Assembly: GCA_934096265.1 (NCBI GenBank)
Contig: CAKOLI010000001.1
Coordinates: forward strand, 210,896-274,895
DNA length: 64,000 nucleotides
Direction: 5' to 3'
Source of the DNA: an uncultured Bacilli bacterium
GTDB taxonomy: Bacteria; Bacillota_I; Bacilli_A; RF39; UBA660
Shown here: piece after piece, positions 9,128 through 38,220 of the stretch
Layout of the letters: every line of letters begins with the position of its first letter
Numbering within the stretch: position 1 is the first letter of the stretch
Notes under the pieces: generated by a model
Told to the model about the DNA's origin: nothing
Databases searched by the model: none
What the model saw: only the letters and a program-made list of their open reading frames with translations
Program-made: the position numbers and the translations under genes

Positions 9128-9274
9128 ATGAAAAAGGGTATGTGTCTTGTGCTTACTACAGGTATGGGGATACTTCTTTATACGCAGATTAAGAATGGTA
9201 ATATGAAGAAGTTAATTGAGAAGTGTAAGAATACAGAGTTAAAAGTAGTAAGTGAACTAGAAAATATGATGTAA
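9128..9274 (+). CDS. small hypothetical membrane peptide (48 aa)
   Basis: RBS TAGGAGTGA, then ATG and a hydrophobic core (MCLVLTTGMGILLY). No recognisable homology. Confidence 0.25.
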   Translation: MKKGMCLVLTTGMGILLYTQIKNGNMKKLIEKCKNTELKVVSELENMM

Positions 9275-9412
9275 TAAATAAGAGTCCTTTTTGGGGCTTT
9301 TATTTATTTTTTTATTTAAAATATTGCTAAATTTGTTTAATTATGATATTATTTATATATAGAGTAGCAAGAGTAGTTTTTGTGTACGTATTTAGAGAGG
9401 ATTATGGTATTT

Positions 9413-11779: not shown

Positions 11780-11791
11780 TGAGGTGGATTT

Positions 11792-13711: not shown

Positions 13712-15163
13712 ATGAAGAGGGTATTGTTATGTATATTAGATGGAGTAGGTATTAGGGATGAGGAGTATGGGAATGCTTTTTATCATGCTTCTAAGCCTAA
13801 TTTTGATTATTTATGGAATAGGTATGGCCATAGTTTGCTTAGTGCTAGTGGGAAGGATGTAGGTCTTTCTGATGGTCAGATGGGGAACTCTGAGGTTGGG
13901 CATACTAATATAGGAGCAGGAAGAATTGTTTATCAGTCTTTGGAGCTTATTAATAAGTCTTTTAGGGATGGTGTTATTAAGAATAATTCTTCTTTGAATG
14001 AAGTATTTGATTATGTTAAGAAGAATGGTAGTAAGTTACATGTTATGGGGCTTTTTAGTGATGGAGGAGTGCATTCTCATATTGAGCATTTTCTTAGTAT
14101 GTTGAATATTGCTCATGAATTTGGTGTTAGTAGGATATATGCTCATGTTATTACTGATGGTAGGGATACTAAGGATGATATAGCTTCTTCTTATATAGAT
14201 AGGTTTTATGCTAATGGTGTAGGTAAGTTAGCTAGTATATCTGGTAGGTATTATGCTATGGATAGGGATAAGAGATATGAGAGGACTAATATGTATTATG
14301 ATGTTATTACTAATGGTAGTAGTGATAGTGATGTGGATGTATATGAGTATATAGATAGTTCTTATAAGGATGGTATATATGATGAGTTTATTAAGCCTTG
14401 TTTACTTGATAGGGATGGTTATATAGATAAGGATGATGCTGTGATTTGGGTTAATTTTAGACCTGATAGGGCTAAGCAAATAGTAGGTAAGTTAGAAGAT
14501 AGTGGTATTAGGGTGTTATCTATTATGAAGATTAGTGATGAGATTAGTAGTCCTTATATATTAGATAAGGTAAGTGTTTCAAATACTTTAGGAGAGTATA
14601 TAGCGGGTCTTGGGTTATCACAGCTTAGGATTGCAGAGACTGAGAAGTATGCTCATGTTACTTATTTTTTTGATGGGGGTAAGGAGTTAGATTTGCCTAG
14701 GTGTGATAAGGTGCTAGTTCCTTCTAAGAAGGTAGCTACTTATGATTTGGATCCTTCTATGAGTGCTTATGAGATTACTTTTTCTTTGCTAGATAGGATG
14801 GATAAGTATGATTTTATTGTGCTTAATTTTGCTAATGGGGATATGGTAGGTCATACTGGTAATTATGAGGCTACTTTGGCTTCTGTAGAAGCTATGGATA
14901 GTTGTTTGGGTAAGATTTATAATAGGGCTTTGGAGTTAGATACTTTGCTTGTAGTTACTGCGGATCATGGTAATTGTGATTATATGATAGATAGTGATGG
15001 CAATAAGGTTACCACGCATTCTCTTAGTAAGGTGCCTTTTATTGTATGTTGTGATGGTGTTTTAGTAGATGATGGTAAGTTGTCGGATATAGCTCCTTCT
15101 TTGTTATATCTTATGGGGTTAAATGTACCTAGTGAGATGAGTGGTAGGAATTTGATTAAATAA
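13712..15163 (+). CDS. gpmI: 2,3-bisphosphoglycerate-independent phosphoglycerate mutase
   Basis: iPGM N-terminus (ILDGVGIRDE...GNSEVGHTNIGAGR) and a C-terminal metal-binding region (TADHGNCD). Confidence 0.85.
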   Translation: MKRVLLCILDGVGIRDEEYGNAFYHASKPNFDYLWNRYGHSLLSASGKDVGLSDGQMGNSEVGHTNIGAGRIVYQSLELINKSFRDGVIKNNSSLNEVFDYVKKNGSKLHVMGLFSDGGVHSHIEHFLSMLNIAHEFGVSRIYAHVITDGRDTKDDIASSYIDRFYANGVGKLASISGRYYAMDRDKRYERTNMYYDVITNGSSDSDVDVYEYIDSSYKDGIYDEFIKPCLLDRDGYIDKDDAVIWVNFRPDRAKQIVGKLEDSGIRVLSIMKISDEISSPYILDKVSVSNTLGEYIAGLGLSQLRIAETEKYAHVTYFFDGGKELDLPRCDKVLVPSKKVATYDLDPSMSAYEITFSLLDRMDKYDFIVLNFANGDMVGHTGNYEATLASVEAMDSCLGKIYNRALELDTLLVVTADHGNCDYMIDSDGNKVTTHSLSKVPFIVCCDGVLVDDGKLSDIAPSLLYLMGLNVPSEMSGRNLIK

Positions 15164-15280
15164 TGCATGTTATGTGTATTATTTTTTTATGTAAATTTTT
15201 GTCAATTTAGTGTATTTTTGTTGTTTATAGTTAGATATTTTGATAAAATAAAAAAGTATTAGAAAGAGAGGAATATGTTG

Positions 15281-17914
15281 ATGAAGACTAAGTATGTTTA
15301 TGCTTTTAATGAAGGCAATAAGGATATGCGTGATTTGCTTGGTGGTAAGGGTGCTAATTTAGCTGAGATGACTTCTATCGGGTTACCTGTACCTAGAGGG
15401 TTTACTGTTACTACTTTGGCTTGTACTAAGTATTATGATGATAATGAGGTGCTTAGTGAGGAAGTTAAATCGCAAATATTTGATAAGTTAAAAGAGTTAG
15501 AAAAGGTTACTGGTAAGAAGATGGGGGATTTGGATAACCCATTGTTAGTGTCAGTTAGAAGTGGTGCTAGGGCATCTATGCCTGGGATGATGGATACTGT
15601 TCTTAATTTAGGGTTAAATGATGTTGTGGCAGAGAATTTGGCTGAAGAGACTGATAATAAGCGTTTCGCATATGATTCATATAGAAGATTTATTATGATG
15701 TTTGCGGATGTTGTTAAGGGATATTCTAAGAGTTCTTTTGAGAGGGTTCTTGATAGTTATAAAGAGGAACATAATTATAAGTATGATACTGATTTAGATG
15801 AAGATGATATGTATACTATAACGATGAAGTTTAAGGATATATATAAAGAATTATCTGGTAATGATTTTCCTCAAGATCCTAAGGAGCAATTGATTGAAGC
15901 TGTTACTGCTGTATTTAGAAGTTGGAATAATGAAAGAGCTATTATTTATAGGAGAATGAATGATATTCCAAGTTCTTGGGGTACTGCGGTTAATGTTCAA
16001 GAGATGGTTTATGGTAATAAGGGTGATGATTGTGGTACTGGTGTTGCATTTACTAGGAATCCATCTACTGGGGAAAATAAATTATATGGTGAATATTTGA
16101 TTAATGCTCAAGGAGAGGATGTAGTTGCGGGTGTACGTACTCCACAAGATATATCCACTCTTAAGGATATTATGCCTAGTGTGTATGCTGAGTTTGTTGA
16201 GACTACTAAGATATTGGAACGTCATTATCGTGATATGCAAGATATGGAATTTACTATTGAAAATGGTAAGTTGTTTATGCTTCAAACAAGAAATGGTAAG
16301 AGGACTGCGATGGCAGCATTAAAGATAGCGGTTGATTTATATAATGAGGGTATGATTAGTAAGGAAGAAGCTTTGCTTAAGGTAGAGCCTAAGCAACTTG
16401 ATAGTTTGCTTCATCCTAATTTTGATACTGATGCTTTAGCTAAGTCTAAGGTTATTGCTAAGGGTCTTGCGGCTTCTCCTGGAGCAGGTGCTGGTAAGAT
16501 ATATTTTAATGCTGAGGATGTATCTAGTGCTAAGGCTAGAGGAGAAAAAGTGTTGTTAGTTAGACTTGAAACTTCACCTGAAGATATTCAAGGTATGAGT
16601 GATGCTGAAGGTATTTTGACTGTCCGTGGAGGTATGACTTCACATGCTGCGGTTGTTGCTCGTGGTATGGGTAGATGCTGTGTATGTGGATGTGGAGAGT
16701 TAGTTATTAATGAAGAGGATAAGACTTTAACTACTGCTTCTGGATATATATATCATGAAGGGGACTGTTTATCAATAGATGGGTCTACTGGATATGTATA
16801 TGATGGTTTAGTAGCTACGGTAGAACCTTCTATTAGTGGTAATTTTGAAACGTTTATGTCTTGGGCAGATGAAGTTAGAACACTTGGTGTTAGAACTAAT
16901 GCGGATACTCCAAAGGATGCTATGCAAGCAGTTAAGTTTGGTGCTGAAGGTATTGGGTTATGTCGTACTGAGCATATGTTCTTTGAAGAGGCTAGAATAT
17001 TTAATTTTAGAAGGATGATTGCTGCGGATACTAAGGAGCAAAGGGAAGAAGCTTTATCTAAGATACTTCCTTATCAAAGAGAAGATTTTGAGGGATTATT
17101 TAGAGCTATGCAAGGTAAGCCTGTTACTATTAGGTTCTTAGATCCACCTTTACATGAATTTCTACCTCATACTGATGAAGAAATTAAGCCTCTTGCTGAT
17201 AGCCTTGGAGTTAGTTTTGAGTCTTTGAAGGCAAGAATTGAAGGGTTAAAAGAGTTTAATCCGATGATGGGACATCGTGGTTGTAGGCTTGCAATTACTT
17301 ATCCTGAGATAGCTAAGATGCAAACTAGAGCGGTTATTGAAGCTGCGATTAATGTTGGTAAGGAAGGTTTAGTAGTTGTTCCTGAGATAATGATACCACT
17401 AGTAGGAGAGGTAAAGGAACTTAAGTATGTTAAGAATATTGTTTGTAATGTAGCAGATGCTATAATAAAAGAAGCAGGTGTAGATTTGAAGTATAAGGTT
17501 GGTACTATGATTGAGATACCAAGGGCTGCACTTACAGCGGATGCTATCGCGGAAGAAGCTGAGTTCTTTAGTTTTGGTACTAATGATTTAACTCAAATGA
17601 CTTATGGTTTTTCTAGGGATGATGCTTCTAAGTTCTTAGGAGATTATTATAGCAAGCAAATTCTTGAATCTGATCCTTTTGCTAGGTTGGATCAAGATGG
17701 TGTAGGTAAACTTATTGCTATGGCTGTTTCTAAAGGTAGAGAAACTAGACCTAATATTAAGCTTGGTGTATGTGGAGAACATGGAGGGGATCCTTCATCA
17801 GTAGAGTTCTTTAATAAGTTAGGGCTTGATTATGTATCTTGTTCTCCTTATAGGGTGCCTATTGCAAGGCTTGCAGCGGCTAGGGCTAGAGTATTAGAAA
17901 TGTTAGAAAAATAA
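15281..17914 (+). CDS. ppdK: pyruvate, phosphate dikinase
   Basis: PEP-utilising phosphohistidine region (GGMTSHAAVVARGMG), PPDK N-terminal ATP-grasp, C-terminal PEP/pyruvate domain (FFSFGTNDLTQ). Confidence 0.9.
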   Translation: MKTKYVYAFNEGNKDMRDLLGGKGANLAEMTSIGLPVPRGFTVTTLACTKYYDDNEVLSEEVKSQIFDKLKELEKVTGKKMGDLDNPLLVSVRSGARASMPGMMDTVLNLGLNDVVAENLAEETDNKRFAYDSYRRFIMMFADVVKGYSKSSFERVLDSYKEEHNYKYDTDLDEDDMYTITMKFKDIYKELSGNDFPQDPKEQLIEAVTAVFRSWNNERAIIYRRMNDIPSSWGTAVNVQEMVYGNKGDDCGTGVAFTRNPSTGENKLYGEYLINAQGEDVVAGVRTPQDISTLKDIMPSVYAEFVETTKILERHYRDMQDMEFTIENGKLFMLQTRNGKRTAMAALKIAVDLYNEGMISKEEALLKVEPKQLDSLLHPNFDTDALAKSKVIAKGLAASPGAGAGKIYFNAEDVSSAKARGEKVLLVRLETSPEDIQGMSDAEGILTVRGGMTSHAAVVARGMGRCCVCGCGELVINEEDKTLTTASGYIYHEGDCLSIDGSTGYVYDGLVATVEPSISGNFETFMSWADEVRTLGVRTNADTPKDAMQAVKFGAEGIGLCRTEHMFFEEARIFNFRRMIAADTKEQREEALSKILPYQREDFEGLFRAMQGKPVTIRFLDPPLHEFLPHTDEEIKPLADSLGVSFESLKARIEGLKEFNPMMGHRGCRLAITYPEIAKMQTRAVIEAAINVGKEGLVVVPEIMIPLVGEVKELKYVKNIVCNVADAIIKEAGVDLKYKVGTMIEIPRAALTADAIAEEAEFFSFGTNDLTQMTYGFSRDDASKFLGDYYSKQILESDPFARLDQDGVGKLIAMAVSKGRETRPNIKLGVCGEHGGDPSSVEFFNKLGLDYVSCSPYRVPIARLAAARARVLEMLEK

Positions 17915-17962
17915 TGTTTTAAAGATTGAGATTTTTATATTAGGATTTCAATCTTTTTTTGT
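17913..17962. repeat. 50-bp direct repeat, copy 1, containing the ppdK terminator hairpin
   Basis: AATGTTTTAAAGATTGAGATTTTTATATTAGGATTTCAATCTTTTTTTGT is identical to 28328-28377. Stem AAAGATTGAGAT / ATTTCAATCTTT followed by a T-run. Confidence 0.9.
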
Positions 17963-18114
17963 TTAAATTTAGATATGATTTTAAAAGTTTTATTTTGTGC
18001 TTTACATATTTTTTTTAAAAATGAAAATATTTAGATATATACTGAAAAAGTATGGTATAATAAAGATGATATACATAGTATGGCGTTAATTATAATGGAC
18101 TGGAGGATTACTGA

Positions 18115-18369
18115 ATGAATAAGTATCTTATTACTATAATTGTTCCAACTATTGAGTTAGAGTATGATGTATATATTCCAAATAATAAGAAGATTGGGAC
18201 TATTAAAACTCTTATTTTGAAATCACTTAGTGAACTATCTAATAATTCGTTTAATAAGAAAATAGATGAGGTAAGAATAATAGATAGAGATACTGGTAAT
18301 GAATTTGAAAATAATATGTATGTCAAAGATTCAGAAATAAAAAATGGGTCCAAGATTATTATTATGTAA
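18115..18369 (+). CDS. esaB: EsaB/YukD-like small ubiquitin-fold T7SS protein
   Basis: 84 aa with the typical YukD length. Beta-grasp-like pattern (ITIIVP...YDVYIP). First gene of the T7SS operon. RBS GGAGG 8 nt upstream. Extended -10 TGGTATAAT at 18053-18061. Confidence 0.6.
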   Translation: MNKYLITIIVPTIELEYDVYIPNNKKIGTIKTLILKSLSELSNNSFNKKIDEVRIIDRDTGNEFENNMYVKDSEIKNGSKIIIM

Positions 18370-18378
18370 TGGGAGGAG

Positions 18379-18678
18379 GTGATATCTATGGATAGTTTAA
18401 GGATTAATTATGATGAAACTATTTCAGTGGGAAATCAAGTGTCAAATAAAGGAGGAGAATTTCAAGACCTTTTGACTAAAATTAAGTCTATTAATTCTGA
18501 ATTGAAGAGTTATTGGGAAGGTAGTGATGCTTCTAAATATGCGTCTGCTGTTGAACAACAATCTGTATATATGCAAGAACTTGCTGATACTATTAATGAA
18601 ATAGGTGGATTTTTAGTAAAAGTTGGGCAAGCATATCGTGAAGCTTGCCAAAATAATGCAAATGCTATTAAAGGTTAG
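18379..18678 (+). CDS. WXG100 family protein (EsxA-like)
   Basis: 99 aa helical hairpin with central W-x-G (YWEGSDA). Confidence 0.8.
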   Translation: MISMDSLRINYDETISVGNQVSNKGGEFQDLLTKIKSINSELKSYWEGSDASKYASAVEQQSVYMQELADTINEIGGFLVKVGQAYREACQNNANAIKG

Positions 18679-18689
18679 GAGGTTAAAAT

Positions 18690-18980
18690 ATGGATTTTTC
18701 TAAATTATCGTATGGTCAAGTCCAATCAATGGCGGAACAATTAAAGACTTCTGCAGATAAAATGGAAACTCTTTTAAGTGAAATTAAGACATTATTTGAT
18801 AAAATTGGAACAGATGATGTTTGGAGTGGAACAGCTGCGGCTGCTACTAAAGAAACATTTGATCAATTGAGTGCTAAATTTCCTGAGTTTTCTCAATCAA
18901 TAAGTGAATGTTCTACATACTTAGTATCTATGGTTGAAAATTATCAATCAGTTGATTCTATGGTTACAGGTGGTAAGTAA
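18690..18980 (+). CDS. WXG100 family protein
   Basis: 96 aa, central WSG (DVWSGTAA). Confidence 0.75.
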   Translation: MDFSKLSYGQVQSMAEQLKTSADKMETLLSEIKTLFDKIGTDDVWSGTAAAATKETFDQLSAKFPEFSQSISECSTYLVSMVENYQSVDSMVTGGK

Positions 18981-19061
18981 AATGAGCTCAAGTGAGCTCT
19001 TCTTACAGATGGATAATAATTCTTGATTACTATCTATCTGTGAGGAGTTGGGAGTGATAAA

Positions 19062-19355
19062 TTGAATATAGAGATAAATGTTTCAGATGTAGCAAGTTAT
19101 GGGAAACAGATGGTTGAGTGTTCTGGTATGTTTGATGATTCTGTAAAAGAATTTAATGCTTTGATAGATGCTATTAATACTATTTGGGATGGAGCAGATG
19201 CTTTAAAGTATGTAAATACTATGAGAGAGAAATATATTGTTGGGTTAAATGAGCTTAAAGAGTATATGTTAGAATATGGAACTTATTTACAGAAGGTGCC
19301 TGAGAGTTATTCGGCGCTTGATGAAGTGTTTTCATCAAAAAATATAGATGTGTGA
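19062..19355 (+). CDS. WXG100-like protein, possible Lap1-type LXG-effector targeting factor
   Basis: 97 aa, central WDG (TIWDGADA). Its stop overlaps the next gene's start by 4 bp (ATGA). Confidence 0.6.
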   Translation: MNIEINVSDVASYGKQMVECSGMFDDSVKEFNALIDAINTIWDGADALKYVNTMREKYIVGLNELKEYMLEYGTYLQKVPESYSALDEVFSSKNIDV

Positions 19356-19705
19356 GGTGGGGTATGAATATATCATATAGTCAAGTAGAATCACAATGTA
19401 ATCAATTACATGAAACAGCTAAAAAAATGAAGGATATATTAGATATGGTTTCAGAAATAAGAAAGAATGCTTGTAATAGTGCTTCTTGGAATGGAGAGGC
19501 ATCTAATGCATATTCAGAGAAATTAAGTTTGCTGATTGGAAGTTTTGATGAGGCATTTTTAGAGATAGAAAATAGTATTTTGTATATGGCTAGTTGTTCT
19601 TCTGGATATCAAGCATTAGATCAACGGGTAATGCAAGAGATTTGCTCTAATTTAAATATTACCGAACCTAATTTAAGTACGTCTAATATTTTTGGTGTTA
19701 ATTAG
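19352..19705 (+). CDS. WXG100-like protein, possible Lap-type targeting factor
   Basis: 117 aa, central WNG (SWNGEASNA). Translationally coupled to the upstream gene. Confidence 0.6.
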   Translation: MRWGMNISYSQVESQCNQLHETAKKMKDILDMVSEIRKNACNSASWNGEASNAYSEKLSLLIGSFDEAFLEIENSILYMASCSSGYQALDQRVMQEICSNLNITEPNLSTSNIFGVN

Positions 19706-19706
19706 T

Positions 19707-20192
19707 ATGGATTTTGAAAATGTAGATGTACCTAGTTTGGTAAATGCACTTACACAATGCAAAGATTCGATAGATTATAAGGCGTCTTTAGAGTTAATTA
19801 ATGATATATCAAATGTTTCTGTATGGCAATCTTCTTCACAATCAAATTTAAAAAATGCTCTAACGATACTTACCACGAATAGGTATACAGAACTTAAAGA
19901 TAAGATAGATTGTTATTTGACTGTAGCTTCTTATATAGCACAATATCAAAACTTAAGCAAAGAGAATATTCTTTTAAATAAGCAATATAATGATTTGTCT
20001 TATAAATTATATTATGAAGAAGAGTATGAAACTCCTGTTACTTTAGCAGATGGAACTGTAATTAATGAGATAAATACAAGAAAAGTTATGGATAAAAATA
20101 TAAATAATCAAATGAATAATATAAAAAATAAAATAGATAAAAATAAAGAAAAAATGGATGAATTAAAAAAAATAATATATAATTCTATTTAA
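19707..20192 (+). CDS. small helical T7SS-associated protein (possible Lap2/DUF3958-like)
   Basis: About 160 aa, predicted all-helical. Sits between the WXG-like genes and the effector. No specific motif recognised. Confidence 0.35.
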   Translation: MDFENVDVPSLVNALTQCKDSIDYKASLELINDISNVSVWQSSSQSNLKNALTILTTNRYTELKDKIDCYLTVASYIAQYQNLSKENILLNKQYNDLSYKLYYEEEYETPVTLADGTVINEINTRKVMDKNINNQMNNIKNKIDKNKEKMDELKKIIYNSI

Positions 20193-20205
20193 GGAGGAAA
20201 GAAAA

Positions 20206-20487
20206 ATGAATTATGAAAAATATTTACCTATAGGTACAGTTGTGATTTTAAAAAATGGTACAAAGAGGGTTATGATTACTGGTTTTTGTTCAATATCTAA
20301 TGGAGATAAATCAAAAGTTTTTGATTATTCTGGATGTTTGTATCCAGAAGGGTTTATTTCTTCTAATCAAACTTTGTTATTTAACCATGATCAAATAGAG
20401 AAAGTATTTTATTTGGGGTTTGTAGATGATGAAGAAAAAAACTTTAAAGCTAAATTAAATGAAATGCTAAAACAAATTAATCAATAA
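20206..20487 (+). CDS. DUF4176-like small protein (T7SS/LXG-associated family)
   Basis: 93 aa. Motifs LPIGTVVILKNG...VMITGF...GCLYPEGF...LFNHDQIEKVFYLGF fit my memory of the DUF4176 consensus. Confidence 0.55.
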   Translation: MNYEKYLPIGTVVILKNGTKRVMITGFCSISNGDKSKVFDYSGCLYPEGFISSNQTLLFNHDQIEKVFYLGFVDDEEKNFKAKLNEMLKQINQ

Positions 20488-20518
20488 TTTAATTAAATAT
20501 TTGGAAAGGAGTAAAAAA

Positions 20519-23365
20519 ATGAATGATATGTTCAAGATTAATGTTTCATTGTTAAAATCTTATGAAAGTAAATTTAATACAGAATTAAATAGTTTTAATA
20601 ATAAAACTTATGCTACCTTTTCATCTAGTTATTTAAATAGTTGTGCTGATGGTTGTGTTAGTAAGATGGCAAGCCAACTAGAAAAAATATATGAAACAAT
20701 AAAAAAAGGATATACAAATATTGATAAGTGGTGGATTGATTATAATGATAATGCTTCTGGGTTAGAAAATTATTTGTCTGGCAAAGGTAGTCTTGGATCA
20801 ATATCTGAAGCAAGTATTAGGAATAGTGCTAGTCAGTTACCTGAATTAAAAAAATATAATCTTGATTTTGCAGGGATTATTCCTGCTGGTATAGCTGGTG
20901 CAGAATATGGTATGGCGTTTGCTAATAACACGGTAGTATCTAGTGTTGGTACATTTGATACGATAGATTCTGAAGTTCCTTCTTTAGGCTCAGTAATATC
21001 TGATACAGTTGAGAGTGTATTTTCGGGTATTGCTGGTTGGTTTTCGTCTATACCTTGGTTAGAGAATGCCGCTAATTTTTATTGGAATATAATTAAATCT
21101 ACTGGTGCTACTTTGGCAGTTTTTGTTCAATCTTTAATTCAAGGAATAGGTCAGTTTGTAGAAGCAATAGTTGATCTTGTGGCTATTGTTGGTACTGCTG
21201 CTGCATCTATTGTAACTGGATTATGGGATGGTGGCCAAGCTATTTGGGGAGCAATAACTGGTGAAGATTGGGAATCTTTAACAAAAAAAATGTGGAATGG
21301 GACAATGGGGTTTGTTGCAACCCAATATGTTGTAGGTTGGATGGATTTATTATATCAAAATACTGGATATGGTCAATGGTTAGTTGATAATGCCCTAGGT
21401 TTTGATATTGTTAGAGGTATTGGGTCAGGAATAGGATATGTTGCTGGGATAGTAGCTTTAACTATTGCAACATTTGGAGTTGGAGGAGTCGCTGTTGCGG
21501 GAGGTAGTGCGGCCGCTGGAGGTGCTACTGCTGCCGCCGCTGGGAGTGCTACTGCCGCGGGTGGTATTACTATGTCTACTCAATTAGCAATAACTGCCAC
21601 GGCTGCTGGAATAGGAAAGGGCGTACAGAATGCTTGGGCTGATGGTGCAAGTTTAGTTAAAGGATTAATCGCCGGAATACTTAATGGCCTATGGGAAGGA
21701 TTTCAATTTTATATAGGTGGTAAAATTAGTGGCTTGAATATTTTTGGGGGAAAAGGCCTTTTAGAATCAGTAAAGCTTTCAGGTGTAGGTACACAAGTAT
21801 TGAATAGTCTTGGTCGTATAATTTTAGATGGTATTGATGGTGGCGCAGAAGGTTTTGTTACTCCTCTTATTCAGACTATATATAAAGATGGTTATTATGA
21901 TGAGAATGGAGAGTATGTTGAGTTTTCAGATGTTAAGAGTCTTTCTGATGTTTTCGAACGTTATGGTAAAATATTTGAGGAAAATGGTGGCTTTGTAAAT
22001 GTCTTGACGCAAGCTTCTGTTGGTGCAATATCTTCTTTGATAGGGGAACTGTTTGATTTAAGAAAATATTTTGGTAATAAGAAGAGTGAAAGTAAAGTTA
22101 ATATGACATCTGATGAGTTGCAAATAACGCTTGATAAATATAATGAATTAATGGAAATTAAAAATAGTGATGATTATAAGAAATATATGGATTTGAAGAA
22201 TAATAAGTTATTTAAAGGTTCTATGCCAGAGTTTGATGGTGTAGAAAATGAACTTGCATCTATTTCTCTTGAACTAGCGCGTTATAAGTATAATCAATTA
22301 GTAGAAATTAAAAATAGTGATGATTATATTTCGTATATGGATAATGTTAAGAATGGATATAATCAAACTCCAAGACCAGAATTTGATAATATAGAAATGG
22401 AGTTTAAGGCGGTAGAATCTGACTTGGCAAAGATGGTACGACAACAACAATTTAAAATAGAAAAAGATAATGCTTTAAATGAATTTCAAAAAGTGATTAA
22501 AAAGGGCAAAAAGAGTGATAAAGAAGCAATAGACCTTATGTATGAACTTTTTGATACTAGTATTGTAGATGAAAACTGGGATGCCTTGAATGCATTACAG
22601 GCATTTAATAAAGCTAAAGAGAAAAATCCTTCAATACATCTAACTTCACTTGATGGACGAAATTGCTATAGTCCTTATTCTTATTCTATAAATATTAATA
22701 AAGGCAATAAAGTAAAAGAATTTATGGCTCATGAATTAGGTCACTTGTTCCATTTTGAATTACTAGATGAGGTTACTCCTGATAATTTCAATATGCTACT
22801 TGATAATGCGCGAGCTAGTTTATCACCAGATTCAGTAACAAATCAATTTAGTAGTTATTATAATGAAGCTAAAAAAGAGTTTAACGATTTAGCATTAAAT
22901 GATTATTACACTTCTAAATTAGATTCTGATTTTTCTAGATTTTCTAGTATAGAGAATAAATCTCCTTATGTTAATATGACATATGATGAATTTCTAAAAG
23001 CATACACTGAAGACTTTGCAAAAAAACATCCTGAGGTTTCAGTAAGTGATTTAGAATATTTGACTACAAATGATATTAGAATGGATATTTATGCTGTAAA
23101 TACAGAATATATGTATGATAATGGCATTCAAGCACTTTCTGATATTTGTGATGCTTTTTTAAAAGGAAAACTTGATGTTCCAGGTGCACTGGGTCATGGT
23201 GTAGCGTATTATTCTCTTCCTGATGATAGAGAGTTTAAGGAAATGATTGCAAACTTTACTGCAATGAAAATTATGGGAAATAAAAAAACTTTACAAATGA
23301 CAAAAGAAATAATTGGTACATCATTGTATGATGTACTTGATGGTACTTTTAAGCAATTTAAGTAG
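20519..23365 (+). CDS. Large T7SS substrate: LXG-like N-terminal helical domain, glycine-zipper hydrophobic core and C-terminal HEXXH metallopeptidase-like domain (candidate polymorphic toxin)
   Basis: N-terminal about 120 aa helical with L-S-G (YLSGKGSLG). Residues about 120-400 are rich in GxxxG/AxxxG runs (GIGSGIGYVAGIVALTIATFGVGGVAVAGGSAAAGGATAAAAGSATAAGG). The C-terminal region has HELGHLFHFE. Start moved to the ATG after RBS GGAAAGGAG. Confidence 0.55.
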   Translation: MNDMFKINVSLLKSYESKFNTELNSFNNKTYATFSSSYLNSCADGCVSKMASQLEKIYETIKKGYTNIDKWWIDYNDNASGLENYLSGKGSLGSISEASIRNSASQLPELKKYNLDFAGIIPAGIAGAEYGMAFANNTVVSSVGTFDTIDSEVPSLGSVISDTVESVFSGIAGWFSSIPWLENAANFYWNIIKSTGATLAVFVQSLIQGIGQFVEAIVDLVAIVGTAAASIVTGLWDGGQAIWGAITGEDWESLTKKMWNGTMGFVATQYVVGWMDLLYQNTGYGQWLVDNALGFDIVRGIGSGIGYVAGIVALTIATFGVGGVAVAGGSAAAGGATAAAAGSATAAGGITMSTQLAITATAAGIGKGVQNAWADGASLVKGLIAGILNGLWEGFQFYIGGKISGLNIFGGKGLLESVKLSGVGTQVLNSLGRIILDGIDGGAEGFVTPLIQTIYKDGYYDENGEYVEFSDVKSLSDVFERYGKIFEENGGFVNVLTQASVGAISSLIGELFDLRKYFGNKKSESKVNMTSDELQITLDKYNELMEIKNSDDYKKYMDLKNNKLFKGSMPEFDGVENELASISLELARYKYNQLVEIKNSDDYISYMDNVKNGYNQTPRPEFDNIEMEFKAVESDLAKMVRQQQFKIEKDNALNEFQKVIKKGKKSDKEAIDLMYELFDTSIVDENWDALNALQAFNKAKEKNPSIHLTSLDGRNCYSPYSYSININKGNKVKEFMAHELGHLFHFELLDEVTPDNFNMLLDNARASLSPDSVTNQFSSYYNEAKKEFNDLALNDYYTSKLDSDFSRFSSIENKSPYVNMTYDEFLKAYTEDFAKKHPEVSVSDLEYLTTNDIRMDIYAVNTEYMYDNGIQALSDICDAFLKGKLDVPGALGHGVAYYSLPDDREFKEMIANFTAMKIMGNKKTLQMTKEIIGTSLYDVLDGTFKQFK

Positions 23366-23391
23366 GTAATTAAGGAAAGAGATGGTTATAT

Positions 23392-23634
23392 ATGGATGAT
23401 AAAGATAATAGATTGTTATGGAATATTTTGGAAGTTAAATATTTAAAAATGTTTGGTAGAGAGATTAGTTGTGATCCGAATGATAGTTATGACCTTTTTC
23501 CTTTAGGTTGGTATTTGGATATTGATGTTGATACAAAGATTAAAATTTTATTAGAGGCATTAGAGAATAATAAAAAAATAGTAGATACATCTTTATATCA
23601 AGATATGTTGAATGAAAGAGATAAAAGATTATAA
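23392..23634 (+). CDS. candidate immunity protein for the upstream effector (80 aa)
   Basis: Small ORF immediately 3' of the toxin C-terminal domain, the position typical of immunity genes. No homology recognised. Confidence 0.35.
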   Translation: MDDKDNRLLWNILEVKYLKMFGREISCDPNDSYDLFPLGWYLDIDVDTKIKILLEALENNKKIVDTSLYQDMLNERDKRL

Positions 23635-23694
23635 ATATATATCAGAATATATCAGACCTTTTTATGATGTTATTTTAGGAAGGAGTATAATACA

Positions 23695-26600
23695 ATGCGA
23701 GTTTCAACGATAAGGGCATTAAAAATTAATAATATACTGTTACCAGATAAGATAGAAGGGAATTATTGGATTGATGGTACTGATGATAATGGTATAAAAA
23801 GGAATTTAATATCTATAGAGTCTTATGATGGTAAATGGAGATTAATAAGTAATAAGGAAGTTTATTGTGTAGTAGCTGGGGAGAAGGTTCCATATATTAA
23901 TTTGGAAGAGGGTAAATTTTATTTAGTGGTTAATAGTGTAGCTAAGGAAAATTTATTGTTGTATTGTTCTTCTGTTTTGGCTAGTTATAATTGTTATGAT
24001 ATAGAAGAATTTTTGAAAGATGGAATAACTATTGGTAGTGAACCTAGTAATTTGATTACGTATTCTATTTTAGATTCTTTATGTGCTTGTATTAAATATG
24101 AAAAGGGAAATGTTTTTGTTGTAGATAATAAGTCAAGATGTGGTGTGTATGTAAATGATGTTAGAGTTATAGGAAAAAGGGAGTTAAAAATAGGGGATAT
24201 TATTTTTATTGCTGGTGTGAAGATTATATTTTCTATAAATTCTAAAAAGACTCATTGTATTTATGTTAATGATGGTTCTTTAAATGGAGTGGGTGTGAAA
24301 TTATCAAAAACTGTGGATATGCAAGTAGTTAATAATGATTTTTATGAATTAGAGCAGGAAGTGGAATATCCATTATATGATGAGAAAGATTATTTCCATA
24401 AGGTTCCTAGGTTTTTTCAAAAAGATGAGGCTTTAGTTTTACAAGTTGATCCACCTCCTGCGAAAGTAGATGAAGGGAATAATTCTTTATTATTGACAAT
24501 AGGTCCAATGATAACGATGTCTATGACTTCTTTGGTTACTGGTTATATGGCTTTAAATAATGTTTTAAATGGGGATGCTACTTGGGCTAAAGCGACACCT
24601 TCGTTAGTTATATGTGGCGCGATGTTTGCTAGTGTATTTATATGGCCTATATTTACTAAGTGGTATGATAAGAAAAATAGAATTAAGAATGAGTTGCTTA
24701 GGCAGCAAAAATATAGTGAGTATATAGAAGCTAAGAGGAAGATGATTATAGAAGCTAAAAACCAACAGACGGCAATATTGACAAATAATTATATAAATAT
24801 AAAAGAGGCTGTAGATACTATTTTAAGAAAATATACTGGGTTATGGCAACGTAGGATAGAAGATGATGACTTTTTAGATGTAAATTTGGGATATGGAAGT
24901 TATCCAATGAAAATTGATATTAAGTATCCAGAAGAAAGGTTTTCAATGGTTGAGGATAATCTAAAGGATATGGTATTAAAGTTAGGGCAAGAGCCTAAGT
25001 TGTTGTTAAATGTACCAGTTGTGTTTTCTTTAAGGGAAGCTTTTATAAGTGGTATAATTGGTGGGTATGAAATTAATGAGTTTACTAGAAGGTTGTTAAT
25101 TCAAATACTTGCTTTACATAGTTATGATGATTTGAAAATTGTTTTTTTGACTGATGAAGAAAAAGAATCTGAATGGAAGGTATTTAAACAGGTTCCTCAT
25201 TGCTTTTCTGATGATAAGAGTTTAAGATTTTTCGCGACAAATAATGATGAATATAAAGAGGTTTGTTATTATTTAGATAAGATTTTTGATTATAGAAAAG
25301 AAAAGTCTAATACGGATAGTAAGATAAATAGTTTTAATCAATCTTTTTTAATAGTGACAGATAGTTTTAAGAAGATTAGGAATTTTGATATTATTAAAGA
25401 TATTTTGGAGAGTAAGAAATATTATGGTTTTAGTATTTTGATTTTAGATAATAAGATAACTAATTTGCCTGATCAATGTTCTGATTTTATAAGTTTAAGT
25501 AAGGATAATGGGGAACTTAGAAATAATAAGAATATAACTGAAAGTATTAAATTTTCGGTGGATTTATTATCAAGTGTTGATTATGATGGTTGTGTTAAGG
25601 CATTAGCTAATATTCCAATAGAATTGTCTTTAGATGATGAAAACCAAATTGCCTCTAAGATAGGTTTTTTAGAGATGTATGATGTTGGGAAGATAGAACA
25701 GTTGAATTCTCCGACTAGGTGGGTTAAAAATAATCCAATTTTAAATTTGCAAGTTCCGGTTGGTATTGGTAAAAGTGGGGAAAAGATTACGATTGATTTG
25801 CATGAGAAGTATCATGGTCCACATGGGTTAATTGCTGGTATGACGGGAAGTGGGAAGTCAGAGTTTATTATTACGTATATTTTATCAATGGCTATAAATT
25901 ATCATCCATATGAAGTTCAGTTTATTTTGATTGATTATAAAGGTGGAGGATTAGCGGGGGCTTTTGAGAATAGTAGTACTGGATTAAAGTTACCACATTT
26001 GGTTGGAACTATTACTAATTTGGATGCTAATGAGATAAAGAGGAGTCTTGCTTCTATTGATTTTGAGTTAAAAAGAAGGCAAGCATTATTTAATACTGCA
26101 AGGGAATTTTCTGGAGAGGGTACAATTGATATTTATAAGTATCAAAAGATGTATAGAGATGGTATTGTTAAGGAACCTGTTTCACATTTGTTTATTATAT
26201 GTGATGAGTTTGCAGAATTAAAGAGTCAGCAACCAGAGTTTATGGCACAGTTAATTTCAACAGCACGTATTGGTCGTTCTTTAGGGGTGCATTTGATTTT
26301 AGCTACGCAAAAGCCAAGTGGTGTGGTCGATCCCCAAATATGGAGTAATACAAGATTTAGAGTATGTATGAGGGTGCAAGATAAGTCTGATTCAAATGAG
26401 GTTATTAAATGTCCTGATGCTGCATATTTAAAGCAAACAGGAAGGTTTTATTTTCAAGTAGGGTTTAATGAAGTGTTTTTACTAGGACAAGCTGCTTATG
26501 CTGGTGGGAAATATATTCCATCTGAAAAGGTAACTAAGACAATAGATACAACTATTAATTTTATTGATAATATTGGTTATACGATTAAGAAGGTTGATAC

Positions 26601-28326
26601 TAAGGTTAAAACTGATACTGTAGTTGTGGATATTGGAGAGGAATTAAGTAATATAGTAAAATATTTAGATAATATTGCAAAGGAACAAAATATTAAATGT
26701 AGGCCATTATGGTTGGAGAAGATTCCAGAGGATATTAGAATAGAGAATTTGGCTTTAAAATATAAATATGAGAAAGAAGAATATATAATTAATCCAATTA
26801 TTGGGGAATATGATATACCTTCAAGGCAAGAACAAGCTTTGTTAACTTTGCCATTATCAAAAGAGGGTAATGCATTGATTTATGGTTCTTCAGGAAGTGG
26901 TAAAGAAAACTTTATTACAACATTGCTTTATTCATCTAGTATGTATTATTCACCAGAAGAGGTAAATTATTATGTAGTTGATTTTGGTTCTGAAGTTTTA
27001 AGGATGTTTAATGATTATCCAATTGTAGGTGATATATTAGATTCAGATGATGAAGAGAAAATTAAAAATTTATATAAGATGTTAAACGCGACGATTGAAG
27101 AGAGAAAGATTTTATTTTCTGAATATAATGGAGATTATTATACTTATTGTAAGAATAATGGTAAGGCTATTCCAAGTATTGTAGTAGTTATAAATAATTA
27201 TGAGTCATATCAAGAAACATATCCAGAGTTTGATGATATGCTTATTGTATTATCAAGGGAGTGTAATAAATATGGTATATTCTTTGTGCTTACTGTTAAT
27301 ACTCCGAATGGGTTACGTTTTAAGTTAAGACAAAATTTTTCGTTAACATATGTATTGCAACAAAATAGTAATGATGATTATACAACTATTTTAGGTAATG
27401 TATATAAAAATTATCCTGCAAAGATTTTTGGTAGAGGGATTTTTAAGACGGATGATGTATATGAATTTCAAACTGCTTTGGTAAGTGATAAGGATAATAT
27501 TATTAAATATGTAAAAGATAAGAAAAATGAGTTAAAGAATAAATATTCTACTATGGCTAAGCGAATTCCTGTTTTGCCTAATGTTGTGGATTATTCTTCA
27601 ATATATAAAGATTTTGGTAAGTCATCATCTTTAATTATTGGTATTGATAAATCTTCTTTGAAAATATGTAAATTTGATTTTAATAAAAATTATTTAACTA
27701 TAATTTCAATGTTGGATTTAACTGCAAGTAGTAATTTTTTAAATCCATTTATAAATCAAATTATTGCTAATAATAATTCAATGTTATTTGTTATAAATGC
27801 TTCTGATGACGAGATAGATGATAAGTATAAATCACAATATCAGTATGTTGATCATCAATTTAATGAGGTTTTTGTTAATTTATTAAATTTTGTGAAAGAG
27901 CAATATGATGGTTATGTTAAAAATGATTATAATAAGAATATTTTTAATAATATGAGGAAGGTATATTGTATTATAATAGGGATTGATTCTTTTAAGATGC
28001 GTCTTAATGATGATAACAAGAGTAAATTTGCTGATTTATTTATAAACGGTAAGGATTTAGGTATAATTAGTTTTATAATTGTAGATAGTATTGATCAGAT
28101 TAGAAAGGTAGAGATGGAATCTTGGTATAAAAATTGTGTTAATAACAATTTTGGTATTTGGATAGGTAATGGTATAAATGATCAGTTTAGTTTGAGGATA
28201 AGTCAAAAGATTGAAGAGATGAAAGAAGATGTTCCGAATAATTTCTGTTTTGTAATTAAACGCGGTAGGGTTCAATATGTAAAATTCGTTGAAAAATTAG
28301 AGTTAGATATTAAAAGTAATGAGTAA
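23695..28326 (+). CDS. essC: T7SS FtsK/SpoIIIE-family ATPase EssC/YukBA
   Basis: 1543 aa. N-terminal FHA-like region, 2 TM segments (about aa 270-320), three P-loop ATPase domains (GMTGSGKSE; LILATQKPSGVVD; degenerate GSSGSGKEN). Confidence 0.9.
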   Translation: MRVSTIRALKINNILLPDKIEGNYWIDGTDDNGIKRNLISIESYDGKWRLISNKEVYCVVAGEKVPYINLEEGKFYLVVNSVAKENLLLYCSSVLASYNCYDIEEFLKDGITIGSEPSNLITYSILDSLCACIKYEKGNVFVVDNKSRCGVYVNDVRVIGKRELKIGDIIFIAGVKIIFSINSKKTHCIYVNDGSLNGVGVKLSKTVDMQVVNNDFYELEQEVEYPLYDEKDYFHKVPRFFQKDEALVLQVDPPPAKVDEGNNSLLLTIGPMITMSMTSLVTGYMALNNVLNGDATWAKATPSLVICGAMFASVFIWPIFTKWYDKKNRIKNELLRQQKYSEYIEAKRKMIIEAKNQQTAILTNNYINIKEAVDTILRKYTGLWQRRIEDDDFLDVNLGYGSYPMKIDIKYPEERFSMVEDNLKDMVLKLGQEPKLLLNVPVVFSLREAFISGIIGGYEINEFTRRLLIQILALHSYDDLKIVFLTDEEKESEWKVFKQVPHCFSDDKSLRFFATNNDEYKEVCYYLDKIFDYRKEKSNTDSKINSFNQSFLIVTDSFKKIRNFDIIKDILESKKYYGFSILILDNKITNLPDQCSDFISLSKDNGELRNNKNITESIKFSVDLLSSVDYDGCVKALANIPIELSLDDENQIASKIGFLEMYDVGKIEQLNSPTRWVKNNPILNLQVPVGIGKSGEKITIDLHEKYHGPHGLIAGMTGSGKSEFIITYILSMAINYHPYEVQFILIDYKGGGLAGAFENSSTGLKLPHLVGTITNLDANEIKRSLASIDFELKRRQALFNTAREFSGEGTIDIYKYQKMYRDGIVKEPVSHLFIICDEFAELKSQQPEFMAQLISTARIGRSLGVHLILATQKPSGVVDPQIWSNTRFRVCMRVQDKSDSNEVIKCPDAAYLKQTGRFYFQVGFNEVFLLGQAAYAGGKYIPSEKVTKTIDTTINFIDNIGYTIKKVDTKVKTDTVVVDIGEELSNIVKYLDNIAKEQNIKCRPLWLEKIPEDIRIENLALKYKYEKEEYIINPIIGEYDIPSRQEQALLTLPLSKEGNALIYGSSGSGKENFITTLLYSSSMYYSPEEVNYYVVDFGSEVLRMFNDYPIVGDILDSDDEEKIKNLYKMLNATIEERKILFSEYNGDYYTYCKNNGKAIPSIVVVINNYESYQETYPEFDDMLIVLSRECNKYGIFFVLTVNTPNGLRFKLRQNFSLTYVLQQNSNDDYTTILGNVYKNYPAKIFGRGIFKTDDVYEFQTALVSDKDNIIKYVKDKKNELKNKYSTMAKRIPVLPNVVDYSSIYKDFGKSSSLIIGIDKSSLKICKFDFNKNYLTIISMLDLTASSNFLNPFINQIIANNNSMLFVINASDDEIDDKYKSQYQYVDHQFNEVFVNLLNFVKEQYDGYVKNDYNKNIFNNMRKVYCIIIGIDSFKMRLNDDNKSKFADLFINGKDLGIISFIIVDSIDQIRKVEMESWYKNCVNNNFGIWIGNGINDQFSLRISQKIEEMKEDVPNNFCFVIKRGRVQYVKFVEKLELDIKSNE

Positions 28327-28327
28327 G

Positions 28328-28377
28328 AATGTTTTAAAGATTGAGATTTTTATATTAGGATTTCAATCTTTTTTTGT
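28328..28377. repeat. 50-bp direct repeat, copy 2 (terminator hairpin after essC)
   Basis: Identical to 17913-17962. Confidence 0.9.
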
Positions 28378-28437
28378 ATAGGGGAGTAGAAATAATGTTA
28401 ATTATTTGATATAATGTTTATAGTAGGAGTGATTGAT

Positions 28438-28983
28438 ATGGATAATGTTTTGCTAATTATTATAATAATTTTGATATCATTAGGAGTATTTTGTTTAATT
28501 AAGTCAGTATGTAAGCCTATAAGTACATTGACGGCTGTTTTGCTTGTCATACCAACGGTGTTAACATGTGGGGTTGTGCTGTTTATTTATAGGGCTTTTA
28601 AGAATAGTTATGTGTCTACTTCAAGTAATATTTCTAGTAGTAATAAGTATTCAACTGATTTTTATGATGTTAATGATAATAGTATGGGTAGTGAAGATAA
28701 GAAGCCCGCTAGGGCATATGATGATGGCTTCGGTAAGACTACTTATTATGATAAGGAAGGTAATTTGATGGGGGCTTCTTTAGATAATGGGTTTGGTAAG
28801 GAGACATTTACGGATAGTGAAGGTAATTATGTGGGTAGTACTTTTGATAATGGTCTTGGAAGTACTACGTATACAGGTAAAGATGGGAAGGTAGTTTTTA
28901 GTAATACTAATTATTTAGGGGATGAGAATTTTTCTGATGGAACAGTATCTAGGAAGGATTCTTCTTCTAAGTATTATTCTTAG
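28438..28983 (+). CDS. membrane-anchored protein with three about 20-aa (D/N)NGFGK-T(T/F)Y-D-EGN repeats
   Basis: Two N-terminal TM helices, then DDGFGKTTYYDKEGNLMGAS / LDNGFGKETFTDSEGNYVGST / FDNGLGSTTYTGKDGKVVFSN. Core-like codon usage. Extended -10 TGATATAAT at 28408-28416. Confidence 0.5.
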   Translation: MDNVLLIIIIILISLGVFCLIKSVCKPISTLTAVLLVIPTVLTCGVVLFIYRAFKNSYVSTSSNISSSNKYSTDFYDVNDNSMGSEDKKPARAYDDGFGKTTYYDKEGNLMGASLDNGFGKETFTDSEGNYVGSTFDNGLGSTTYTGKDGKVVFSNTNYLGDENFSDGTVSRKDSSSKYYS

Positions 28984-29002: not shown

Positions 29003-29366
29003 ATGAAGAGGTATGTTGCGTTTCTTCGTGGTATTAATGTAGGTGGTAAGAATAGTGTGTCTATGAAAAGTCTTAGGGAGTTGTTTAGTTCTTCTTATTA
29101 TGATGTTGTTACTTATCTTAATAGTGGTAATGTTATTTTTATAATTAGGCCTTATACTTATTATGATGTTTCTTTGGCTTTAGGTAGTCCTGATTCTAGG
29201 TATGAGAAGGTGTTTAATTATAAGGATAAGGTGTTTTGGTCTTTTGATTTAAATAATTATAGGAAGAGTGTTTAGTGGAAGAAGAGTGCTAGTAGTAGTG
29301 TTAGTGGTTTTATTACTATTAGGACGGCGAATACTGTTAGGAAGGTATTGGAGATATGTAAGAGGT
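29003..29366 (+). pseudogene. DUF1697-family gene remnant with in-frame TAG stop and internal shortening
   Basis: N-terminus MKRYVAFLRGINVGGKNSVSMKSLRELF matches DUF1697. After the TAG at 29273-29275 the same frame continues as ...SGFITIRTANTVRKVLEI, matching the family C-terminus. Total about 120 aa against about 180 expected. Confidence 0.45.
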
Positions 29367-29431
29367 AATATTTTGCTTTTCTTTTTATAAGTATTATTGT
29401 ATAATTGTTATAGGAGTAGGAAGGTGTTTTG

Positions 29432-34300: not shown

Positions 34301-34377
34301 GTCCTCGTAGCTCAGTAGGATAGAGCGAGTGCCTCCTAAGCACTAGGTCGTTGGTTCGATTCCAATCGGGGACGCCA
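34301..34377 (+). tRNA. tRNA-Arg (anticodon CCT)
   Basis: Cloverleaf read by eye. Acceptor GTCCTCG/CGGGGAC, D-arm GCTC-AGTAGGAT-AGAGC, anticodon stem AGTGC/GCACT with loop CTCCTAA, T-arm GTTGG-TTCGATT-CCAAT, 3' CCA encoded. Confidence 0.8.
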
Positions 34378-37812: not shown

Positions 37813-37837
37813 TTTATAAGATAAATATATAAAAATA

Positions 37838-38135: not shown

Positions 38136-38220
38136 TAGTATCTTATTAGTTAATTCTACACATTTTTAAATTATAATGTGGTATGATAATTTTAATGATA
38201 GAAAGGGAGTAAGAAAATAT

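Follow-up and report, generated by a model that had tools for sequence, protein, structure and literature searches.

The 64,000-nucleotide stretch of DNA analysed here, referred to throughout as the window (contig CAKOLI010000001.1 of the uncultured Bacilli assembly GCA_934096265.1), contains a type VII secretion system (T7SS) cassette located between ppdK, a core gene for pyruvate, phosphate dikinase, and a gene for a 189-aa membrane protein (Table 1). The cassette (17963-28377) comprises ten open reading frames (ORFs), all on the + strand, and is bordered by two copies of the 50-bp direct repeat AATGTTTTAAAGATTGAGATTTTTATATTAGGATTTCAATCTTTTTTTGT. As an earlier note on this DNA had reported, these copies stand next to the ppdK and essC stop codons and show no mismatches to one another. 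The left copy starts within the ppdK stop codon (TAA, 17912-17914), of which it takes in the final two bases; a single base separates the right copy from the essC stop codon (TAA, 28324-28326). Identity between the surroundings of the two copies ends exactly at the borders of the 50-mer on both sides. The gene content between the copies is as that note had described it, with the addition of one gene that it had not listed, encoding a 166-aa protein.

Table 1. Features of the T7SS cassette and its borders (positions in the window)
Feature	Coordinates	Strand	Basis or remark
ppdK (pyruvate, phosphate dikinase), core gene, left flank	15275-17914	+	Pfam PPDK_N, PEP-utilizers, PEP-utilizers_C
Left 50-mer copy	17913-17962	+	ppdK hairpin and T-run, probable intrinsic terminator; sole copy in empty-site contigs L084, L086, L087, L088
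Cassette 5′ leader	17963-18114	+	promoter-like site 18032-18061, TAGATA-18-TATAAT with upstream TG
EsaB/YukD-like ubiquitin-fold protein, 84 aa	18115-18369	+	AlphaFold2 and Foldseek
Two WXG100 genes, EsxA/EsxB-like pair	18379-18678, 18690-18980	+	PF06013, 42.5 and 44.6 bits (cut-off 27.3)
Two small WXG100-like helical proteins	19062-19355, 19352-19705	+	PF06013 E = 2-3e-4, under gathering score
166-aa protein	19692-20192	+	no family match, no hydrophobic segment
DUF4176 protein	20206-20487	+	PF13780, 100.6 bits
954-aa candidate polymorphic toxin	20501-23365	+	helical N-terminal half, Gly/Ala-rich hydrophobic centre, variable C-terminal domain with HELGH
80-aa candidate immunity protein	23392-23634	+	position directly after toxin gene
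essC, T7SS FtsK/SpoIIIE-type ATPase with N-terminal FHA domain	23695-28326	+	TIGR03928, Pfam FHA and FtsK_SpoIIIE
Right 50-mer copy	28328-28377	+	predicted cassette terminator, insulating next gene; T8 in L091, unchanged in L103
189-aa membrane protein gene, right flank	28414-28983	+	own promoter-like site 28387-28415

The earlier note had predicted that relatives might carry an empty site composed of ppdK, one terminator and the next gene, and precisely this arrangement is found in conspecific strains, the PpdK protein being identical in strains with and without the island. The PpdK of the window (P0121; the start called by gene callers lies two codons downstream of the window's start) is encoded on 15 contigs. 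On L084, L086, L087 and L088, ppdK is followed by ~85 bp and then by the 189-aa gene, with no cassette and with the single terminator directly preceding that gene. Base for base, the empty allele consists of the sequence preceding the left copy, a single 50-mer and the sequence following the right copy; an additional 10,415 bp is all that sets the occupied allele apart. Because these same-species junctions match base for base, the cassette is an accessory module cleanly delimited by the repeats, as had been proposed from the window alone.

Both alleles are well represented within the species, for which gut metagenome assemblies are the only source, among them those of Hadza samples and the metagenome-assembled genome (MAG) GCA_963604215.1, which has the empty-site allele. 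The occupied samples include ERZ27286926, ERZ27242004 and SRR31618335. The cassette is present on L082 (identical to the window), L085 and L089, as well as on all eight contigs that encode a second PpdK variant (P0122, 99.1% identical). It is absent from L083, where a 228-aa gene replaces both the 189-aa gene and the remnant of a DUF1697 gene. Altogether, ~14 of the 23 ppdK-bearing conspecific contigs are occupied and nine are without the cassette, counts that rest on automated grouping of contigs.

Alleles of this kind could also be produced by the misjoining of contigs through the 50-bp repeat, inasmuch as short-k assemblies do break inside it and one Logan contig (L092) both starts and ends there. 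Against such an artefact, independent samples and assemblers span every junction. The two occupied junctions are covered by k = 141 contigs of 55-130 kb (L082/L090, L085/L091) and by the Logan contig L103, in which the two copies differ, and the empty allele is covered by a 371-kb Hadza contig at 56x and a 251-kb scaffold, among others. An assembly origin for the polymorphism is therefore barely conceivable. Contig L092, which comprises exactly the island, was also considered as a possible circle and rejected, its ends being k = 31 graph breaks inside the repeat.

The 50-mer itself has the appearance of a transcription terminator. As RNA it is predicted to form a 15-bp hairpin followed by seven U residues (-13.7 kcal/mol, z = -4.9), and at both copies this hairpin sits directly after a stop codon. 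Only two pairs of the stem are G-C, which is why a consensus terminator scan did not list it; nevertheless, its reading as a probable intrinsic terminator is well founded. No family was found by an Rfam scan of 15-31 kb, and the hairpin, searched with its loop left free, had no match in the metagenome contig collection. A kinship of the 50-mer with the ppdK or essC terminators of other species was considered and rejected, since there is no resemblance. In this species the 50-mer is native to ppdK as its probable terminator, and no copy adjoins the cassettes found elsewhere.

It might be supposed that the 50-mer belongs to a generic, multi-copy family of terminators akin to repetitive extragenic palindromic (REP) elements, and that its place at the cassette ends is incidental. 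The copy counts cover the 64-kb window rather than the whole genome, that is, ~5% of roughly 1.2-1.4 Mb, which leaves some room for this view. Within the window, however, there is no third copy at ≤3 mismatches (nor any in 100 shuffles), an ungapped scan of both strands at ≤18 mismatches in 50 returns just the two copies and no diverged relative, and none of the 14-mers of the repeat occurs elsewhere. Moreover, both copies are at cassette ends, the empty allele contains a single copy between precisely the two outer flanks, and neither the metagenome contig collection nor the locus of any relative contains a match. A REP-like family is thus very improbable.

The cassette begins with a leader, parts of which are also conserved before esaB in cassettes from other species (alignment A2). 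The 84-aa product of the first gene has no significant match to Pfam YukD, and its AlphaFold2 model (pLDDT 93.2) is a ubiquitin-like beta-grasp that Foldseek aligns with ubiquitin-like proteins at TM 0.7-0.77, the ubiquitin-like domain of EccD (ESX-5) being among the matches. By its predicted fold only, then, an EsaB/YukD ubiquitin-like component appears to be present. The EsxA/EsxB-like pair that follows also matches TIGR03930, below the cut-off of that model. The order of the two weaker WXG100-like genes is kept in all cassettes, and their products are candidates for co-secretion or targeting partners of the toxin. The 166-aa protein, a candidate targeting factor, has no match in Pfam, NCBIfam or PDB sequences and is 47-56% identical to the product of the gene at the same position in the related cassettes L093, L097 and L104. 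Proteins of the DUF4176 family have been reported as chaperones or helpers of T7SS toxins (PMC10765036; PMC12482557).

The largest product before EssC, the 954-aa protein, has no Pfam or NCBIfam family and no PDB sequence match, and Pfam scans of three pieces of it gave non-significant metallopeptidase hints around HELGH only. An LXG domain (PF04740) was not matched by Pfam in either the whole protein or its N-terminal 194 residues at E values up to 1. Over its N-terminal 550-600 residues, the 954-aa protein shares 48-50% identity with its large counterparts in the L093 and L097 cassettes, and over a shorter internal segment 56% with that of L104. The C-terminal region (22.3-23.5 kb), on the other hand, is hypervariable among conspecific strains. 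In L104, the large protein ends in an ADP-ribosyltransferase toxin domain (ADPrib_exo_Tox) and the next gene encodes an ADP-ribosylglycohydrolase. Because of this hypervariable C-terminus, the conserved N-terminal part and the toxin/ADP-ribosylglycohydrolase layout of L104, the 954-aa protein is a candidate polymorphic toxin: a conserved N-terminal part is joined to an interchangeable C-terminus and followed by a candidate immunity gene. The latter assignment, for the 80-aa gene, is suggested by position only; its product has no family match and is 50% identical to the products of equivalent small genes in L093 and L097. At window positions 22300-23560, covering the last third of the 954-aa protein and the first part of the 80-aa gene, as many as 119 differences per 500 bp separate conspecific strains, compared with 0-6 in other regions.

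EssC scores 980.2 bits against TIGR03928 (T7_EssCb_Firm; cut-off 778.4). The components that can be recognised are this EssC-type ATPase, an EsxA-type WXG100 protein and the EsaB/YukD-like fold. EsaA, EssA and EssB, which together with EsxA, EsaB and EssC are stated to be always encoded at T7SSb loci (PMC10765036), were not detected in the island or the scanned neighbours. Specifically, there is no Pfam or NCBIfam match to EssB in the ten island proteins or the scanned flanking proteins (ten Pfam, ten NCBIfam), and none to EsaA in the ten island proteins or the scanned flanking proteins of the window. The only large island protein, that of 954 aa, is homologous to the toxins of other cassettes and not to EsaA. 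EssA likewise has no match, and no small island protein contains a hydrophobic segment. Judged by these proteins, the supported label is a reduced T7SS with a b-type EssC, and "T7SSb", or "Type VIIb" in the earlier note, is too specific.

Two groups of described T7SS loci are close to the cassette. Accessory T7SSb loci of Bacillota, such as the essC variants of Staphylococcus aureus, the subtypes of group B Streptococcus and the locus of Streptococcus gallolyticus, which occurs in one subspecies only, are all known to be variable. Here, as there, a polymorphic toxin with a DUF4176 helper and an immunity candidate downstream of it adjoins EssC, WXG100 proteins and a ubiquitin-like EsaB; strains differ in the toxin C-terminus, and the locus is present, absent or variable within a species (PMC10765036; PMC10434224; PMC9900821). 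In contrast to those loci, the cassette has no detected EsaA, EssA or EssB, essC is its last gene with no variable region after it, and the whole system, machinery included, comes and goes between the copies of a duplicated terminator. The reduced variants T7SSc to T7SSj share three components and often include kinases and FHA domains (Garrett, Higginson and Palmer, 2024, PMC11217815). Their conserved set of WXG100 protein, ubiquitin-like protein and ATPase, with an FHA domain on the ATPase (PMC11217815), is also that of the cassette, as is the presence of extra small WXG100-like genes adjoining candidate substrates. A further likeness to these variants, a Ser/Thr kinase gene next to the ATPase gene, is confined to related cassettes: a gene for a 250-aa soluble Ser/Thr kinase (Pkinase) directly precedes essC in L093, L095 and L104 and is absent in the window and L097. 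Unlike T7SSc to T7SSj, the cassette encodes an ATPase that exceeds the curated cut-off for T7SSb EssC.

Cassettes with the same ten-gene order, esaB through essC, reside at unrelated sites in other species (L093, L097, L104, L123, L173). The L097 cassette is situated between lon/LysM genes and a YgjP-like gene, and that of L104 before FtsX/ABC genes. The L093 cassette lies between a tyrosine-recombinase (Xer-like) gene, directly upstream of esaB, and ppdK, and is thus upstream of ppdK and not downstream; the recombinase neighbour and the kinase gene before essC are located within L093 positions 1-476 and 9244-9996. As a null for the repeat, the sequences 800 bp to either side of the cassette (upstream of esaB and downstream of essC) were compared with each other in 15 related T7SS loci from other species, including L093, L095 and L097. 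The longest exact matches were of 10-13 nt, with no flanking repeats above that length. A general insertion mechanism that generates repeats was accordingly rejected, as these matches are of chance length.

The proteins of L093 and the window are 80% (EssC), 85% (EsaB) and 70% (DUF4176) identical, as against 63% for the adjacent PpdK. Even in relatives at smaller PpdK distances (69-75% PpdK identity), ordinary proteins are 44-65% identical, PfkB for example at 44%. This discordance between EssC and PpdK supports horizontal transfer of the cassette and is the strongest evidence for it. Together with the unrelated sites in other species, it lends weight to the acquisition that the earlier note had suggested.

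The cassette could instead be ancestral and vertically inherited, the empty strains being simple deletions and its composition reflecting gene-specific constraints. Some ~250 EssC homologues do form a graded identity series (98, 81, 80, 79 ... 55%), as vertical descent would predict. Against vertical descent, apart from the discordance and the unrelated sites, relatives at 69-75% PpdK identity have ppdK and then pfkB, with no cassette, and those at 84-85% have other neighbours. Synteny in the latter differs on both sides of ppdK and is uninformative about an older empty site. The nearest PpdK proteins outside the species are 84-86% identical and include that of Clostridium sp. CAG:762. The closest GTDB species-representative genomes are uncultured "Bacilli"/"Tenericutes" MAGs with PpdK identity ≤78%, the present species not being represented among them, and a search of these genomes for the 189-aa right-flank protein found no relative. 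On balance, vertical inheritance of the cassette is distinctly unlikely, though further lines of evidence considered below also lean towards it.

In distant relatives (L004, L011, L012), ppdK is followed directly or nearly so by pfkB-smr. Judged by this gene order, the cassette, the 189-aa gene and the DUF1697 remnant are later additions at the ppdK intergenic site, and because pfkB directly follows ppdK in these relatives, the ppdK-pfkB interval is an insertion hotspot with multiple layers. The DUF1697 gene of the window (29003-29275) is a 90-aa remnant, 180 bp short of the intact 181-aa gene in L103; in other strains, remnants of 57-121 aa are found.

The earlier note had also pointed to a difference in codon usage between the island and the core, and the composition of the window turns out to be unusual in its own right. 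In plus-strand core genes the frequencies of A, C, G and T at third codon positions (A3, C3, G3 and T3) are ~0.15, ~0.01, ~0.25 and ~0.58, respectively. Because minus-strand genes mirror these values, the bias follows the replication strand and not expression. The strand asymmetry is extreme across the whole window (for example, 13712-15163 and 29429-30331 versus the minus-strand 42106-43217), with a GC skew at third positions (GC3 skew) of ~0.9. Relatives, including those with 84-85% PpdK identity, have A3 and T3 of ~0.42 and G3 of ~0.1, a contrast that suggests a mutational bias of recent origin, peculiar to this species (leading-strand A to G and C to T changes) and perhaps arising from a repair defect.

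Against this background, the island has pooled values of A3 0.31, G3 0.17, T3 0.50 and C3 0.02, compared with A3 0.22, G3 0.21, T3 0.54 and C3 0.02 in the other plus-strand genes (Mann-Whitney p = 2e-4). Its third positions are thus intermediate between those of the host core and those of relatives. The claim of A-ending island codons was right in direction but overstated, in that T-ending codons still dominate and nine of 40 other genes are as A-rich as the island. The statement that the flanking genes use core codons stands, A3 being 0.24 in ppdK and 0.19 in the 189-aa gene, and because these immediate neighbours are host-like the compositional shift coincides with the repeats. Since the skew tracks the replication strand, the weaker skew of the island is not explained by low expression, which is a further argument against an ancestral cassette under gene-specific constraints. 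In favour of such a cassette, essC has undergone the host-type change as fully as ppdK. When synonymous changes are polarised, A-to-G change affects 37-41% of ancestral A3 sites in essC, versus 7% in a control lineage, and the total loss of ancestral A3 in essC equals that in ppdK. The cassette has therefore long been under the host bias, a comparison that is not decisive for dating its arrival. Elsewhere in the window, a leucine-rich-repeat adhesin-like gene (38176-40155, +; NCBIfam HupY/LrrG, Gli349-like repeats) has a GC3 skew of -0.24 and C3 of 0.10. Such an inverted skew, seen in no other plus-strand gene of the window, suggests that the gene arrived very recently or was inverted.

Variation in the repeat provides a second view of the age of the arrangement. 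The two copies are identical in the window strain, whereas in L091 they differ by one T (left copy T7, right copy T8), and in L103 the right copy is unchanged and the left has ~five changes in the upper stem and loop. Empty alleles have T7 in L084 and L086 and T8 in L087, L088 and L083, which mirrors the variants of the right copy. Divergence within the cassette is 0.2-0.5% between the window and L085 and ~1% between the window and L103, and that of the flanks is similar, the toxin C-terminus excepted. The matrix of flank distances does not separate empty from occupied strains, which are intermingled in it, and L103, the conspecific strain that diverges most, has the cassette. Because the repeat copies differ in some strains and the diversity of the island equals that of its flanks, the sampled strains diverged only after the duplication had arisen and the cassette was in place, and the arrival is not recent. 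The equal diversity and the occupied L103 also favour an ancestral cassette. The presence/absence polymorphism, for its part, is either old or recurrent.

Taken together, these observations favour, at a probability of roughly 0.7, a strain-variable accessory cassette that is gained and lost by recombination across a duplicated ppdK terminator and that was originally acquired horizontally. The cassette would form one transcription unit with its own promoter, encoding a reduced apparatus (EssC, the ubiquitin-fold EsaB-like protein and WXG100 proteins) along with a large polymorphic toxin that the system may secrete, its helpers (the two WXG100-like proteins, the 166-aa protein and DUF4176) and a small immunity candidate. 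The left terminator copy would end ppdK transcription and the right copy that of the cassette, insulating the next gene, whose promoter-like site lies behind the predicted terminator in both alleles. Homologous recombination between 50-bp repeats 10.4 kb apart could then remove the cassette without a scar and restore the single-terminator site, so that empty alleles would be deletions rather than sites that had never been occupied. Regain would proceed by conspecific exchange through flanking homology, loss being the frequent direction, and the two together would give rise to presence/absence polymorphism among strains. The lineage would first have received the cassette horizontally, from another lineage of gut Bacilli and at a time before the divergence of the sampled strains. 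Recombination across the terminator is favoured because the island has no recombinase, related cassettes lack flanking repeats, cassette diversity equals flank diversity and the T-run variants of empty alleles fit the right copies.

The principal alternative is a mobile circle carrying one 50-mer that integrates at the ppdK terminator, either by a Campbell-type crossover or through a recombinase acting in trans with the hairpin as an att-like site, such that the repeats are attL and attR and the empty alleles were never occupied or have been excised. The occupied allele exceeds the empty one by the cassette and a single copy of the repeat, which is the signature of single-crossover integration, and 50 bp of identity at a gene's 3′ end falls within the sizes known for attL/attR cores of integrative islands. 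The T7/T8 difference in L091 fits the entry of a T7 circle into a T8 site, the cassette occupies different sites in different species, and in L093 a tyrosine-recombinase gene stands directly upstream of esaB. On the other hand, there is neither a recombinase gene or remnant between the repeats nor room for one, and none of the 15 related cassettes has flanking repeats above chance length, so the generation of repeats upon integration is not a property of the cassette. In addition, the 50-mer is native to ppdK and is not found by cassettes elsewhere, and the equal diversity of cassette and flanks speaks against recent, repeated integration. Integration of a circle is accordingly considered unlikely. 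In a circle or tandem copy, the junction from essC through the 50-mer to the esaB leader would read GAGTAAG, the 50-mer and then TTAAATTTAGAT.

Several points nonetheless weigh against recombination across a duplicated terminator, and against a horizontally acquired, functional cassette more generally. The direction of events is one of these, as integration of a circle with a 50-mer gives the same two alleles. Both gain and loss fit the T7/T8 run, the flanking single-nucleotide polymorphisms (SNPs) and the flank distance matrices. No recombinase, circular junction or mixed-allele sample was seen. Nor does this mechanism account for a ppdK terminator copy one base after the essC stop; conceivably, a small tandem duplication of the terminator was followed by insertion between the copies, or the arrangement was imported by homology-anchored exchange from a strain that already carried ppdK, terminator and cassette. 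The modest compositional shift and long residence mean that composition alone is not proof of foreign origin, and the discordance between EssC and PpdK rests on the one locus that holds both genes, L093, whose ppdK could be a xenologue. Function as a secretion system is not assured, given that EsaA, EssA and EssB were not found at the locus. Signs of decay are present as well. In L085/L091 the toxin gene is split into two ORFs of 384 and 551 aa (L085 15239-18106), and in the P0122 lineage an insertion interrupts essC at the equivalent of window position 24816, so that the secretion ATPase is probably inactivated there. The insertion, which follows codon 374 (L106 19497-19637, L107 13024-13099) in this lineage of eight contigs, begins TGATATGAACCCCGTTTCTTGG and encodes MAKLSYDDKINIYYMKKKGISRKAIANTYKI, which looks like the N-terminus of an insertion sequence (IS) transposase; all contigs end there.

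The cassette bears an evident resemblance to integrase-mediated islands bounded by attL and attR, in which, too, a conserved gene has direct repeats tens of bp long at its 3′ end, conspecific strains show a precise one-copy empty site and the composition differs from the core. It is unlike them in that none of its ten ORFs encodes an integrase or recombinase, the repeat is a predicted intrinsic-terminator hairpin rather than a tRNA or the end of a gene, and related cassettes are without such repeats. A parallel for the proposed mechanism is provided by the immunity gene arrays of T7SS loci, in which recombination between direct repeats also changes gene content (PMC9484751). In those arrays the repeats are tandem paralogous genes of hundreds of bp (PMC9484751), whereas here they are duplicates of a 50-bp non-coding terminator, and the whole system would be removed.

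An accessory T7SS toxin island with flanking direct repeats and an empty site is of a kind already known and is, in that respect, fairly ordinary. The new particulars are the use of terminator duplicates as repeats, the lack of a recombinase, the mobility of the whole reduced machinery and an undescribed cassette family in uncultured gut Bacilli. The locus is a clean case, found in nature, of a complete secretion system that together with its toxin behaves as one removable unit, with both alleles in one species and boundaries defined to the base. It further indicates how a duplicated terminator can keep a housekeeping gene and an inserted operon terminated while serving as a substrate for scarless loss. 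Widespread among uncultured gut Bacilli, the family is without three of the six components that T7SSb loci are said always to encode; if functional, it would narrow the minimal requirements for type VII secretion. As a compact ten-gene unit common to distant lineages, it is also open to heterologous testing. A bolder proposal is that the ten genes constitute a self-sufficient, mobile, minimal T7SS of small-genome gut Bacilli that requires only EssC, the ubiquitin-like protein and WXG100 proteins, dispenses with EsaA, EssA and EssB and moves between lineages as a unit, with the duplicated terminator hairpin of this species acting as a recombinase-free, scarless on/off site through which strains would shed or regain the whole system; this is considered unlikely.

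Other parts of the window contain further substrates for recombination. A direct repeat of ~540 bp, 87-91% identical and comprising a promoter region and the start of a gene, is found at 37830-38369 and 49274-49751, the copies being 11.4 kb apart. Three paralogous genes of unknown function (9380-13576, 49594-51414) are 60-90% identical in segments. The sole tRNA gene in the window is that for tRNA-Arg(CCT), at 34301-34377.

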